NCBI GenBank assembly: GCA_049519175.1
Contig: JBEKQZ010000003.1
Coordinates: forward strand, 1-46,805
DNA: 46,805 nucleotides
Source: Candidatus Levyibacteriota bacterium
GTDB taxonomy: Bacteria; Patescibacteriota; Microgenomatia; Levybacterales; UBA12049
Reading direction: 5' to 3'
Shown: piece by piece, positions 41,383-46,805 of the stretch
Position numbering within the stretch: the first letter of the stretch is position 1
Layout: each line of letters begins with the position of its first letter
The notes under the pieces: model-generated
What the model was told of the DNA's origin: nothing
What the model saw: the letters and a program-made list of their open reading frames with translations, nothing else
Database searches by the model: none
Translations under genes and position numbers: made by a program

Positions 41383-42564
41383 ATGACGGTAAAATCTAAG
41401 CCAAAAACTAAACATAAGAAAATAAGAAAACGGTCTCTCCGTAAGCCTTTTTTCAAATTGACCTCCATCGCTACGTGCATTGCCATTTTTTTAATAGTGA
41501 TAATTGGCGGATTTTATCTTTTACTGCGGGTTAATCAAACTTTCGCGGCTAATTTTGCCGACAACGTGTTAAGACCGCGGATCGGAAACCAAGCAACCAT
41601 TTATATTGAATCGGTTTTTTTTGGCATCGAAGATAATGTTAATCGGGTAAAATATTCTTTCGTAAAAGCAAACCCATCAGAGCTGTCGCAAAATTACACG
41701 GTAACGAATGCTTCGGTTGAGCGTTCGGTAGGCTTTAATCTGGCAAAAATAACCAGCTTAGCTTATTTTCCTTTTTTCCCGGGTGAAGGTGAATGGAATC
41801 AGATCTACAGCGGAACAATGGGAGCGTTAATGGCCAAGACCTTTGTCAGGCCTGACTCTAAGCGTTCTTACGCGATTGTCTATTTGGTAGAAATGAATAT
41901 GAACAATCTTGTTTTGTCCGCGGTCGCAGGAACTAAAGAGCCGGGAGGAGCAAATAGCCCCGGGCCCGGTAAAATCCCGCTAGCTGTCCAGCAAAGCAAT
42001 CTATTAGTGGCGGCTTTTAACGGAGGATTCCAGGAAAAGGACGGATACTACGGAATGGTTGTTAACGGAAAAACCTATCTTCCCTTGCAAAAAAATCTGG
42101 CTACACTGATTATCTACAATAACACCAAACCAAAAATTATTGATTACACCGGCCAGGATTTGGGCAAAAATGTCGTGGCGGTAAGACAAAACGGACCGCT
42201 GCTTCTGAAAAATTCCAAAGATGTTACTTCTTCAAGCGCCTGGGATATGCAGACTTGGGGGTTGACGACGACGAACTCAATGTATACCTGGCGTTCGGGA
42301 ATCGGCATCACCAGTAATGGGAATTTAATTTACGCCGCCGGACCATCACTAGTTCCGCAGACTCTGGCGGCGGCGCTAAAAGCAGCGGGAGCGGCTAATG
42401 CCATGCAATTAGACATTAATCCCGTTTGGGTGCGCTTTATGATATTCAACTCTTTGGGCAACGGAAAGTATAAATATTATTCTTTAAGTAGCGACATGAC
42501 TAACGGAGGATATCAGGATCTAACCGGATATCAAAAAGATTTTTTCTATCTCCTCGAAAAATAA
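41383..42564 (+). CDS. Phosphodiester glycosidase (NAGPA-like) family membrane-anchored protein
   Basis: AAFNGGF, TWRSGIG, AMQLDIN; N-terminal TM segment. Confidence 0.8.
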   Translation: MTVKSKPKTKHKKIRKRSLRKPFFKLTSIATCIAIFLIVIIGGFYLLLRVNQTFAANFADNVLRPRIGNQATIYIESVFFGIEDNVNRVKYSFVKANPSELSQNYTVTNASVERSVGFNLAKITSLAYFPFFPGEGEWNQIYSGTMGALMAKTFVRPDSKRSYAIVYLVEMNMNNLVLSAVAGTKEPGGANSPGPGKIPLAVQQSNLLVAAFNGGFQEKDGYYGMVVNGKTYLPLQKNLATLIIYNNTKPKIIDYTGQDLGKNVVAVRQNGPLLLKNSKDVTSSSAWDMQTWGLTTTNSMYTWRSGIGITSNGNLIYAAGPSLVPQTLAAALKAAGAANAMQLDINPVWVRFMIFNSLGNGKYKYYSLSSDMTNGGYQDLTGYQKDFFYLLEK

Positions 42565-42907
42565 AATACTTTTTAAGCATTTTCTCAGGAAGTAAGATTA
42601 ATGTAAGAATATTCGGGTTTAGCTCTGGAGAGTATAATACAGACTATGCAGTTAATAAAAAGTAAAGTCATTATTTTTATTCTTGCGCTTTTATTTTCCT
42701 CTTTCTTCTTTGCTTTACCAGTCTTTGCCAATAATAATGCCAACACTAATAATTCGCTTTTTTCAGTTAACAACAGTTCGGTTCCGGCCGATGGCTCATC
42801 CACCGCCACGATTTCCATTACGGTTAGAGACGATTCGAATAATGCGGTATCTGGAGATACGGTAACTTTAACCAGCTCCGGTGATTCGGGATTAGTGATT
42901 AACGGCG

Positions 42908-42985
42908 GAAGCACTGGTCGCCATAACTTCCGTCGTAGTCGCAGTATATTCCGTTCCAGTAAGCTAGAAAGCTATCAACTGTCAT
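42908..42985 (-). pseudogene. Truncated N-terminus of a CHAP-domain endolysin
   Basis: MTVDSFLAYWNGIYCDYDGSYGDQCF matches the DxDGxYGxQC motif, then runs into host sequence and stops. Confidence 0.75.
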
Positions 42986-43001
42986 AAGTTAATTATACTC
43001 T

Positions 43002-43295
43002 TTAATGCAAATGCTGTATATAGTTTAAAAATAAAAACATGAAAGTTCCACTTAAAACTGTCGCTGCTGTTGGAATAGCCACTTTCCACAATAGACTAGC
43101 TTTTTCAAGAGCTTGAAATCTCTCCTCGGTCTGACGGGCTACGACTGCCAGTTCTTCTTTGGAAGCAAACACCCCATTAATCTCTTTTAGAGAGGCCTTA
43201 ATTTCTGCTATGTCGCCTTGGATATTGTTTAGATTAGTATTCAAAATTGCTACATCTACTATGTTTTTTACGTCTATTTTAGTTGTTTTTACCAT
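43002..43295 (-). CDS. Coiled-coil plus C-terminal TM protein, XhlA/holin-like
   Basis: Architecture, and position immediately upstream of the endolysin start. Confidence 0.65.
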   Translation of the reverse strand: MVKTTKIDVKNIVDVAILNTNLNNIQGDIAEIKASLKEINGVFASKEELAVVARQTEERFQALEKASLLWKVAIPTAATVLSGTFMFLFLNYIQHLH

Positions 43296-43323
43296 ATTTG
43301 ACTCTTAGTGCTATAATGTATAC

Positions 43324-43494
43324 ATGATACTTTTTATTATTGAACTATTCTTCGCATATATAGCTTTTTGCATATTGCTCTACTTCGGTCAATTCTTATT
43401 AGCTCTATCAAAATTTCTAGTTCTTTATGTTTATTGTTTATATAAATCATTGACTACTAACTTGTCCTCCGGCTTGAAACACTCTAGGCAATAA
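43324..43494 (+). CDS. Small hydrophobic protein (56 aa; missing from the ORF track)
   Basis: MILFIIELFFAYIAFCILLYFGQFLLALSKFLVLYVYCLY...; TGcTATAAT 6 nt upstream of the ATG. Confidence 0.5.
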   Translation: MILFIIELFFAYIAFCILLYFGQFLLALSKFLVLYVYCLYKSLTTNLSSGLKHSRQ

Positions 43495-44411
43495 TTGATT
43501 CAAATATCCTCCTTCTTGTGGAATTACTTTTTGAGCAGCTTGAAAAGGAAGTTTACCAACGGCTGATAATGCTACCGCGACCACCGATTCAAACGGCAAT
43601 GTTAGCTTTACTGTTAGTTCCAATAATCCAAACCCCGGCACCGATACTTTTACCACTTCGGATACCAGTGATAATCCGGCTATCCCCTTAGGTTCTAATA
43701 GTAGTGTCACGGTCACTTTTACGACTCCTAACTCTTGTAATTATGGAACGCCGGCGACGCCGCAACTTACTTCGGCAGTTGCCGATAGTGATAATCAAAT
43801 TACGCTCACTTGGGCAGATGCGACCGACCCGGTCAGCTATTATTTGGTTTCTTATGGACTTACTTCGGGTCAATATATTTATGGCAATCCCAATGTTGGT
43901 GGGCAGGGCACGACTTCATACATAGTTGGCAATTTAGCAGCCGGCACCACTTATTATTTTGTGGTAAAAGCGGTAAATGGTTGCACGCCGGGGAGCGCTT
44001 CAAACGAAGTTTCCGCCACAACAACCGGCGGGGTTGTCGCAGCTACCCCCACGCCCGCTTCAGCGGATACGACTTCCGACACCGGTAGTCAAGACGAGGT
44101 TACGCCGACCGACACTCCAACACCAACTATTGCGCCAACCGCTACTCCCACACCGGCGCCAACTTTAGTGGCCGGGACTTCGAAAACACAGCTGTTGGTT
44201 TACATTATCATCTTCATTCTGTTCGTCGGAGGGATTGGTTGGTTTATCTACTGGAGACGCCAAAAAAATAAAAATATCTTGACCCCCAATAAGCCCAGCG
44301 AACAAACGCCCACCGATTTTATCAATCGATAATTTCCCCTCGCCTAATAAAAAATACACAACTTCACCATAAGCAAAGTTATGTATTAAAAGTTTTGTTA
44401 AGAAATGACTG

Positions 44412-44558
44412 CTACTTTTCTTCTAACTTTTCTTTTACCCACTTAAGCTTTTCTTCCAGCATCTTCTTTTTTGTTTCAAGATGCTCTTTTGACATTTTAT
44501 GTTCTTGGCAACACTCCGGCATTTCATGTCCGCCGCAATTGCATTTTTTATCCATCAT
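44412..44558 (-). CDS. Small Cys/His-rich coiled-coil protein (48 aa; missing from the ORF track)
   Basis: MMDKKCNCGGHEMPECCQEHKMSKEHLETKKKMLEEKLKWVKEKLEEK; strong RBS AAGGGGGGTGAA and upstream TATAAT. Confidence 0.75.
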   Translation of the reverse strand: MMDKKCNCGGHEMPECCQEHKMSKEHLETKKKMLEEKLKWVKEKLEEK

Positions 44559-44641
44559 ATCTTTCACCCCCCTTCAACACTCTTATTATAGACTAATCTT
44601 CGTTTTCGAAGATAACAATTATTTTTAGCTTAAGTAAGGAT

Positions 44642-45766: not shown

Positions 45767-45864
45767 CGACGTTAGAACCTGTTTCTGAGATTTAACACAT
45801 AACTCTCTGATTATTTCCTGATATTTTGCTTTTTATACGACTTTGTGATTTACTAGATGTATAT

Positions 45865-46805
45865 ATGAATACATCGAGTATTCAACCATTACTCCGCAAG
45901 GCCGCTAAGAAATCATTTCTTATCCGCGCACTAGCATTTACTCTAGTTATAGTTTTTGCTGTTCTTATCGGGTATATAGCCGGCAGGATTTCTCCGAGAG
46001 AGTGTTCCAAATCCGTTCTCGGATCTCAGTGGCCGACTTTTCCATCACCCACTCCAACTCCCACTAGTCATTGGCCGACTTTTCCATCACCCACTCCAAC
46101 TCCCACTAGTCATTGGCCGACTTTTCCATCACCCACTCCAACTCCCACTAGTCATTGGCCGACTTTTCCATCACCCACTCCAACTCCCACTAGTCATTGG
46201 CCAACGCCAACGCCCACTAATACGCCACTCACGCCGAACAAGATAAAACAGATCGTCAGCGATGTTGGAATAACTCTGAGCACAGGAATTACTATGAATA
46301 CAGGTACGCATAGTTATACCGTCAAAGGTAACATGCAGGATAGAATACTCGGATTAATCCAGATATCGGATCCGGTTACTTTAAGCGTAAATGGAAATGG
46401 CGGAATAAGGGCATCCATAGCCAAACCCTGGTGGCAAAAAATATTTACCAATCCGTTTATCAACGTAATAAAATGCTCTTCGATCACCACTGGAGAAACG
46501 GAGTGTCTTAAAGATGGGTGTAGCTACTGGAGTGACTGCGGTAAATGCGAAGACCCAACTACTCCGTATGATCTGGCATGTTCATGCGATACCATTAAAA
46601 GTAAAAGTACATGTAACGCATCTGCTTCTTGTAATTGGCATTCCGAGTGTGCCGGAGGAGGAGCTTGCGCAGTAGCTGGAACAAGCTCTCAAGTAGCCTG
46701 TGGGGGATGTCAAAATATCATTGGAGACAATGCCTGTGACGATACTCCCGGGTGCACTATTGATCCTCGTTGTGGTAGATGTGAAACCGTAGGTGTTTCC
46801 GACCC
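45865..46805 (+). CDS. Membrane-anchored surface protein with PT repeats and Cys-rich repeats; runs off the window
   Basis: Open frame from ATG 45865 to the end: TM segment, WPTFPSPTPTPTSH x4, then C-x8/9-C-x4/5-C-x-W repeats. Confidence 0.85.
   Translation, partial: MNTSSIQPLLRKAAKKSFLIRALAFTLVIVFAVLIGYIAGRISPRECSKSVLGSQWPTFPSPTPTPTSHWPTFPSPTPTPTSHWPTFPSPTPTPTSHWPTFPSPTPTPTSHWPTPTPTNTPLTPNKIKQIVSDVGITLSTGITMNTGTHSYTVKGNMQDRILGLIQISDPVTLSVNGNGGIRASIAKPWWQKIFTNPFINVIKCSSITTGETECLKDGCSYWSDCGKCEDPTTPYDLACSCDTIKSKSTCNASASCNWHSECAGGGACAVAGTSSQVACGGCQNIIGDNACDDTPGCTIDPRCGRCETVGVSD
46030..46202 (+). repeat. Perfect 42-bp tandem repeat, 4 copies plus a partial copy
   Basis: TGGCCGACTTTTCCATCACCCACTCCAACTCCCACTAGTCAT at 46030, 46072, 46114 and 46156. 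Confidence 0.97.

Follow-up and report, generated by a model that had tools for sequence, protein, structure and literature searches.

In the Bacillus prophage PBSX, the XhlA-XhlB-XlyA cassette places a small coiled-coil/transmembrane protein beside an endolysin. Among the routes by which foreign DNA enters chromosomes, homology-facilitated illegitimate recombination is said to be anchored by genuine homology that extends over roughly a hundred bases or more. The part of the Sinorhizobium meliloti study drawn on here describes experimental capture of heterologous fragments in chromosomal double-strand breaks by nonhomologous end joining (NHEJ) with Ku and LigD (PMC6379672), and the section consulted of a report on Acinetobacter baylyi describes SPDIR (short-patch double illegitimate recombination), in which ectopic DNA is joined at (extended) microhomologies in patches of 3 to about 100 bp (10.1101/2023.11.22.568220). 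Here, we analyze contig C3 (JBEKQZ010000003.1) of a Candidatus Levyibacteriota bacterium, whose entire length of 46,805 nt is referred to as the window; the genome totals 848,754 nt on five contigs and is scored 100% complete. Near the end of the window, a 643-nt piece of foreign, phage-like DNA interrupts the gene for an Ig/FN3 surface protein. We consider it likely that phage DNA was captured by microhomology-assisted illegitimate recombination into this small-genome, candidate phyla radiation (CPR)-type chromosome without mobile-element machinery.

Filled and empty alleles of the insertion site

Contigs from four public sequencing runs (X2 to X5) were aligned to positions 42000 to 44600 of the window. 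In run X5, a 2170-nt contig (record 22) tracks the window from 42007 to 42918 and then passes directly into 18 letters equal to 43562 to 43579 except at 43564, and a second contig covers 43572 to 44504 with no difference from the window. These contigs are the empty allele of the insertion site, which a sequence-only reading of this locus had suggested looking for. That reading had also pointed to an intact orthologue as a guide to the breakpoint; the orthologue in a same-genus genome (G003) has at this site the length expected from removal of 643 nt and reads GGSVGADNATA, where the window minus 643 nt reads GGSTGADNATA. The X5 allele and the G003 length therefore place the inserted foreign DNA at 42919 to 43561 (643 nt), and the 640-nt boundaries proposed earlier, drawn between two copies of GGAAG, were abandoned. 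Relative to the empty allele, no host base is duplicated and none is lost.

The earlier argument that deletion of the insert restores a reading frame holds for both lengths, as removal of 640 or 643 nt opens a frame of 348 or 347 amino acids, respectively, but it decides little, because 564 of 2250 end-point combinations near the site also leave an open frame. The GGAAG pair (42907 to 42911 and 43547 to 43551) was rejected both as a junction and as a target duplication, given the X5 empty allele and the position of its second copy inside donor DNA. There, TTTACCAAC, which the 640-nt model assigned to the host, encodes the residues VGK of a donor gene on the minus strand and aligns with VGS or VGN of full-length relatives. 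The pair is also a chance repeat as judged by shuffling: three shared 5-mers were observed between the two 45- to 50-nt junction neighborhoods, and at least one is present in 77% of shuffles, with a mean of 1.9 per shuffle. Thus, from the earlier alternatives of microhomology or a 5-bp duplication, a probable involvement of microhomology is retained, while GGAAG as that microhomology and the target duplication are both dropped. Two further candidates were set aside as junction features, namely an AACGGC 6-mer (42901 and 43558), which is compatible with chance, and a 14-nt inverted pair (I6), which is likewise chance compatible and has its right arm in host sequence that the empty allele also contains.

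The listed comparison of X5 with the window shows no difference outside the end regions of the aligned pieces. Two differences in record 22 are unplaced within about 30 letters of one end (42007 to 42036 or 42889 to 42918), and the only one that can be placed, at 43564, is three bases away from the right junction; in the filled allele, a few bases close to the junctions may be donor derived. Upstream of 42007, 30 letters of the empty-allele contig are unlike the window. They lie inside a NAGPA-like gene (41383 to 42564), and the X5 strain looks mosaic, with a recombination boundary within this gene at about 41977 to 42007.

The filled allele was recovered from other samples. Contigs of X2 (records 1 and 3; 42000 to 43000 and 43344 to 43832) and of X3 (records 9 and 10; 42815 to 43356 and 43363 to 43607) bridge both junctions with 0 differences, all four carrying at least 46 letters on the shorter side of the junction. 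The sample and study codes of these two runs differ from those of X1, the likely source run, and the junction-spanning evidence that had been called for is thus supplied by contigs from two other samples and studies. In X4, the flanks and the middle of the insert are present, with no bridging contig. An intact 97-amino-acid open reading frame (ORF) of the insert, described below, is on record in identical form from four contigs (NCBI, JGI/IMG, Logan, and ENA), the longest of which, at 579,907 nt, exceeds every contig of this assembly. By date, the filled allele occurs in runs of 2018 and 2020 and the empty allele in a run of 2025. All four runs also contain a contig that matches 21 letters at each of 43655 and 44106 with 123 other letters in between; this is probably an fn3/linker gene, either paralogous or from another organism, that has short motifs in common.

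The interrupted surface-protein gene

Positions 42646 to 44332 (plus strand) constitute one gene in two pieces, made up of the ORF starting at 42646 and the frame ending at 44332. The 5′ part (42646 to 42918, plus) encodes a signal-peptide-like N terminus and the first half of a Big_1/Invasin_D3 Ig-like domain, with Pfam matches to Invasin_D3 (3.9e-9) and Big_1 (1.2e-8) that cover only the first half of each profile (3 to 45 of 93 and 2 to 50 of 98, respectively). The 3′ part (43562 to 44332, plus; reading frame 43553 to 44329) encodes the remaining Ig-like domain, an fn3 domain (PF00041, 4.1e-11), a Pro/Thr-rich linker, and a C-terminal hydrophobic membrane anchor. Uninterrupted orthologues of 353 and 348 amino acids are present in the same-genus genomes G003 and G002, and the 3′ part is 79% identical to the former (residues 4 to 251) and 64% identical to the latter. 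Together, the domain matches and the intact orthologues confirm the earlier proposal that the ORFs at 42646 and 43844 are halves of one gene. In the G003 orthologue, Big_1 spans residues 38 to 128 and fn3 residues 158 to 243; the break, after residue 91, therefore falls inside the Big_1 Ig-like domain. Because the 5′ part now stops after 113 amino acids and no start codon opens the 3′ part at the break, the insertion should, from the sequence, have abolished this secreted, membrane-anchored protein.

Donor genes on the insert

At 34.2% GC, the insert differs from the split gene (46.6%), and the genome contains one copy of it. The minus strand of the insert carries the 3′ end of one gene, an intact gene for a protein with coiled-coil and membrane segments, and a cut ORF, all of which are in the ORF list, as the sequence-only reading had described.

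The 3′ end (43447 to 43560, minus) comprises the last 37 codons (43560 to 43450) and the stop codon of a gene from an unnamed family with a full length of about 360 to 410 amino acids. A HMMER search with this 37-residue query against 1.84 billion representatives returned 5 proteins at an E value of ≤0.001. Two of these are P0014 (361 amino acids), which is 63% identical over its residues 325 to 359, and P0013 (114 amino acids), and a tblastn comparison of P0016 with the donor fragment gave 64%. The remaining three are the window's own antisense-extended ORF, a 2399-amino-acid protein without a scored stretch, and a translated repeat array. This last protein, P0012 (216 amino acids), consists of repeats of one 12-residue unit split by variable stretches and looks like a translated CRISPR-type array; its match to the query was read as spurious. 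Three relatives of P0014 (362 to 413 amino acids) all lie on Logan contigs of ≤16.9 kb, and the family is known only from metagenome contigs. Neither P0014 nor P0013 matches a Pfam family, and their PHROG matches are weak and fall in a Gly-rich part, the best (1.9e-4) being to a family of unknown function. By sequence and composition, the adjoining AT-rich stretch (43296 to 43446) is a spacer, intergenic in the donor module, in which promoter-like sites were no commoner than in shuffles.

The intact 97-amino-acid ORF (43002 to 43295, minus) is coiled-coil-like toward its N terminus and hydrophobic in a segment near its C terminus (about residues 70 to 91), with a hydropathy peak of mean 1.44 over residues 73 to 91. 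It is probably a holin-type or XhlA-type lysis accessory protein by analogy of layout, being small, with an N-terminal coiled coil, one C-terminal membrane segment, and an endolysin neighbor, the CHAP start codon lying 16 nt downstream of its stop codon. Only six related proteins were found, in four further clusters with 77 to 87% identity, on ENA/Logan contigs of ≤5.6 kb. Neither the ORF nor these six relatives matched a Pfam family at the cut-off, and XhlA (PF10779) was absent at E values up to 1; the sole weak match of the XhlA model in the genome, at C1:430811 (E value of 0.068), lies away from the insert. A PHROG match to "hemolysin" was weak (E value of 0.18). Thirty look-alike clusters from the ESM Atlas, with scores of 0.93 to 0.94, comprised 24 hypothetical clusters (95 to 100% viral) and 6 XhlA clusters (score of 0.93), a resemblance that serves as a lead only. 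The earlier placement of a holin/XhlA-like gene before the CHAP gene is accordingly kept for its layout and finds no counterpart in the Pfam XhlA model.

The cut ORF (42908 to 42985, minus) is the 5′ fragment of a CHAP endolysin gene; it comprises 26 codons, of which 22 and one further base are donor only, and its frame stops two codons past F26 to give a 28-amino-acid ORF. By BLASTP, it is identical at 18 of 26 positions to a 132-amino-acid CHAP protein of IMG/VR contig L022, a figure that is partly so by construction, as L022 came from a motif-pattern search, and at 13 of 23 positions to the N terminus of the MW202692 endolysin (P0008). These matches uphold the original assignment of the short ORF to the start of a CHAP endolysin. 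PF05257 is matched by the L022 protein, P0008, and three further partners, three of the five above the cut-off. The 28-amino-acid ORF itself has no Pfam match, which is expected because just the first few profile positions are present; PF05257 is unmatched anywhere in the genome, and a sequence comparison of the fragment with the PDB gave nothing meaningful. In tblastn against phage records, the fragment matched 38 records, 34 of them Arthrobacter phages, with weak E values (0.09 to above 1). Among the matches listed, 24 of 25 fall within genes whose annotation reads endolysin, CHAP, or "minor tail protein," and the odd one (OP209177) is an unannotated ORF that carries a CHAP domain. The fragment contains the N-terminal G-x-Q-C motif with the catalytic Cys, alignable to CHAP proteins, and Q-C is invariant in the CHAP alignment (A3). 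The catalytic His and the rest of the domain are absent, and 42908 to 42985 thus reads as a gene fragment and not as an enzyme.

Close CHAP relatives occur on contigs of 17 to 55 kb. Two of the four motif-bearing IMG/VR contigs (L019 and L020) carry a small coiled-coil/transmembrane ORF that shares the strand of the CHAP gene and lies directly upstream of it. In L022, two such ORFs neighbor the CHAP gene on the opposite strand, and L021 has none. The resemblance of the small ORFs of L019, L020, and L022 to the 97-amino-acid family is one of layout only. Elsewhere in the phylum, a search with P0096 recovered the CHAP subfamily from 2 of 400 other genomes at 36 to 44% identity. One of these matches, in another small genome (L024, G705:C9:44093-47548), belongs to a prophage-like lysis module, in which a tail-fibre-like gene is accompanied by two small membrane ORFs and by a 372-amino-acid CHAP protein that ends in a coiled coil and a membrane segment of its own.

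The left and right junctions

Comparison with the empty allele shows that the first base of CHAP codon 23 is the last to come from the donor alone. On the minus strand, host bases 42918 to 42908 extend the CHAP frame through codons 23 to 26 as D-Q-C-F, including the catalytic Cys, which is the antisense of host codons S-T-G. To assess what the donor encoded here, a CHAP-alignment search was made of a 5.8-billion-protein collection; it gave 1012 proteins at an E value of ≤0.001 among 3004 candidates, and the best 120 of the 1012 were ranked by similarity to the 22 donor-only residues alone. Among these 120, the six closest all read DQCF followed by DLAN, and Q-C is found at this spacing in 114 of the 115 proteins whose alignment reaches residue 22. 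The four-residue words in the 115 were AQCV (53), DQCF (18), AQCF (18), AQCW (13), and others (13). The codon after DQCF encodes R in the window and D in the relatives.

These alignments indicate that the donor almost certainly read D-Q-C-F-D at the left junction. Because the closest CHAP relatives read exactly the host-encoded DQCF, the junction is placed within a putative microhomology at 42908 to 42918, where 8 to 11 of 11 nt would be shared with the donor (8 fixed bases and up to 3 wobble bases). Arbitrary host DNA would give Q-C in frame with a probability of about (2/64)^2, or ~1 in 1000. A 40-kb phage would be expected to share about 4000 exact 12-mers with this genome, and microhomology sites are therefore plentiful for a rare joining event. 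The right junction has at most a possible 2-nt overlap (GC). Immediately beyond it (43562 to 43581, minus), the host antisense VAVALSA matches 4 of 7 residues of VANALGK at the corresponding place in P0016, which may be chance in an Ala/Val/Leu-rich sequence or extended similarity at the second junction.

Foreign origin and proposed mechanism of capture

Its single-copy state, its absence from relatives, and the viral CHAP matches and viral Atlas look-alikes characterize the insert, at the level of sequence comparison, as foreign and phage-like. The 97-amino-acid protein was found in 0 of 40 relatives and in 0 of 400 further genomes of the class. Its tblastn matches to phages were four records, all with E values of ≥5, and peptide patterns run against GTDB species representatives gave one match, to the coiled coil of a Ruminococcus YadA-like adhesin, which was rejected as spurious. 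A tblastn search of the genome with the donor-family proteins and the CHAP endolysin P0008 gave no match beyond the insert itself. Neither the insert nor its surroundings contain an ORF for an integrase or transposase; terminal inverted repeats belonging to the insert, att sites, and flanking repeats beyond chance were likewise not seen. The earlier description of a foreign insert broken mid-gene at both ends and lacking integrase, transposase, and terminal inverted repeats is thus borne out, with GC content and copy number in agreement. Donor genes truncated at both ends, an empty site that is exactly restored, and the lack of a recombinase are the features of an illegitimate insertion.

Under the proposed capture, a linear internal piece of a phage late-gene/lysis module would have entered the host cell, most likely by infection; the donor is most likely a phage of this host, with entry by infection rather than by uptake of free DNA. 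Donor codons for DQCF, nearly or fully matching the antisense of the host S-T-G codons, would then have set the left junction, and the right junction would have been joined with at most two shared bases, cutting the Big_1 domain of the secreted, membrane-anchored protein. Two routes of joining come into consideration. In one, a chromosome break would have been repaired by end joining independent of Ku, with the microhomology serving to anneal the left end; in the other, replication would have switched templates into the phage DNA and back, primed by the microhomology. Template switching would fit the exact preservation of host bases somewhat better than end joining, although the two are inseparable by sequence alone. 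Profile searches of the genome detected RecA and one ATP-dependent DNA ligase (C2:151012-151599). No match in the genome was obtained for Ku (PF02735), for which a Bacillus subtilis control was positive, for the NAD-dependent ligase (PF01653), or for ComEC/Rec2 and DprA. The suggestion of an undescribed DNA-capture route is not sustained, since known classes of illegitimate recombination and end joining suffice.

Several observations weigh against this account. No host base is missing, though microhomology-dependent end joining usually deletes host bases. The left microhomology is deduced from proteins and not from donor DNA, and the row used in the CHAP search alignment held DQCF, which means that the candidate collection favored DQCF proteins. 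The comparison with viral contigs proposed earlier did not recover the donor phage itself: a blastn search of the insert against 50,697 phage records (INPHARED) gave no match. IMG/VR scans with the 97-amino-acid protein, its alignment, and P0014 found no relative; JGI metagenome contigs held no relative of the 97-amino-acid protein and no exact match to a 25-nt left-flank string, in a scan that may omit the genome's own records. Homology between the 97-amino-acid ORF and the Pfam XhlA model is not detectable, and hhalign found none between its family and the small ORFs beside related CHAP genes (L019 and L022). The side-by-side order of the three donor genes is known from the insert and not from a phage contig. 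Finally, the allele evidence consists of assembled contigs and not raw reads.

Phage genes in chromosomes are most often the remains of prophages, and a prophage might have integrated whole and later been deleted to 643 nt. This we regard as very unlikely. Removal of the insert restores the host exactly with no att-type repeat, no integrase is present, and what is left is one contiguous stretch internal to a lysis module and in lysis-module order, not the two ends of a prophage; the absence of listed differences in X5 away from piece ends leaves little time for integration and decay, and neither the tblastn searches with donor-family proteins and P0008 nor the Pfam CHAP profile found remains elsewhere in the genome. 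A donor other than a phage, such as another cell's chromosome or a plasmid with a CHAP hydrolase beside a small membrane protein, taken up as free DNA, is an unlikely source. Bacterial cell-wall hydrolases commonly contain CHAP domains, no name is attached to the donor families, and a contig of 459,017 nt holds one of the CHAP relatives (P0112); set against this are the lack of a ComEC or DprA profile match in the genome, the best N-terminal matches to endolysins on viral contigs together with the viral Atlas look-alikes, and the absence of the 97-amino-acid family from 440 related genomes and, by peptide patterns, from GTDB species representatives.

The preferred reading, phage DNA joined through microhomology, also has to be weighed against blunt, homology-independent joining in which the antisense DQCF arose by chance. 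No shared letter stands directly beside either junction when the window is compared with the X5 empty allele, and identity at the junction is not readable from donor DNA, both of which suit blunt joining; the rarity of Q-C in frame and the supply of all four residues of the closest relatives make it highly improbable. A non-autonomous mobile element (a miniature inverted-repeat transposable element [MITE]-like or homing cassette) would agree with a compact insert that holds an intact small gene and appears in several samples. Such an element is scarcely credible here, as there is no target duplication and the insert lacks terminal inverted repeats of its own (the right arm of I6 being host DNA), both ends lie inside truncated genes, and the single copy has no further counterparts in its own genome or, by the 97-amino-acid protein search, in 440 related genomes. 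An assembly chimera or gap-filling error is conceivable in a five-contig metagenome assembly; its probability is close to nil, because both junctions recur without change in contigs assembled per run from two other samples and studies.

Other features near the insertion

Downstream of the split gene, a 51-amino-acid small ORF (44412 to 44567, minus), Cys/His rich and Lys/Glu rich, has no Pfam match. It is kept beside the G003 orthologue (L003, about 855 to 1199), as seen from the similarity between long antisense ORFs of the two loci. In a further ORF (45826 to 46803, plus), which runs past the contig end, a membrane anchor, four tandem 14-residue units (HWPTFPSPTPTPTS), and a Cys-rich region follow one another; this ORF has no Pfam match.

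Meaning of the insertion and comparison with known systems

The filled and empty alleles in public peat and wetland metagenomes provide a natural before-and-after pair and a base-by-base view of 643 nt of phage DNA entering a bacterium in which no Ku was detected. One crossover would lie in a short identity whose position within a conserved catalytic motif makes it deducible. The insert would also link an unplaced phage group, known only from short ENA/Logan contigs and absent from INPHARED and IMG/VR in the searches made, to a Levybacteria-type CPR host, for which virus links are scarce. A keyword-level literature search listed no account of a CPR genome that had captured part of a phage lysis module, and such an account may exist. 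Should captures of this kind prove recurrent among CPR genomes, they would amount to a second archive, independent of CRISPR, of host-virus pairs in uncultured lineages.

The insertion marks one surface protein as dispensable in nature and, with that, as a candidate phage receptor. That the protein is a phage receptor whose loss was selected is speculation. The fuller scenario, in which the phage needs this receptor, its own DNA knocked the gene out by Ku-independent joining, the cell survived infection, and the resistance spread, is one we hold to be rather unlikely.

Relative to described systems, the donor module resembles the PBSX cassette in that the gene directly upstream of the endolysin encodes a small protein whose membrane segment is C-terminal, an arrangement also seen in L019 and L020, and differs in that the Pfam XhlA model is unmatched and the endolysin is reduced to just 22 to 26 codons. 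Like the capture events by NHEJ set out in the portion of the S. meliloti study considered here, the insertion involved a linear, nonhomologous fragment with arbitrary ends at one point and no recombinase (PMC6379672). Unlike that pathway, which in the same portion needs Ku and LigD, this genome has no Ku match and an ATP-dependent enzyme as the only ligase found, and unlike the I-SceI-induced events reported there, this event is natural and has a putative 8- to 11-nt microhomology at one junction (PMC6379672). As in SPDIR, so far as the excerpt of that report extends, ectopic DNA would anneal at microhomologies with mismatches allowed, and the donor can be extragenomic (10.1101/2023.11.22.568220). 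Whereas SPDIR as outlined in that excerpt replaces host bases, here 643 nt were added with no host base lost (10.1101/2023.11.22.568220), and the natural-transformation genes ComEC and DprA were not found in the profile searches. The locus further resembles homology-facilitated illegitimate recombination, as presented in the part of the source used, in that one end would be anchored by identity and the other joined illegitimately (PMC3240628); the anchor here, at most 11 to 12 nt, sets it apart. Overall, we conclude that no new mechanism is indicated and that the insertion polymorphism is real and belongs to a type of event already known.

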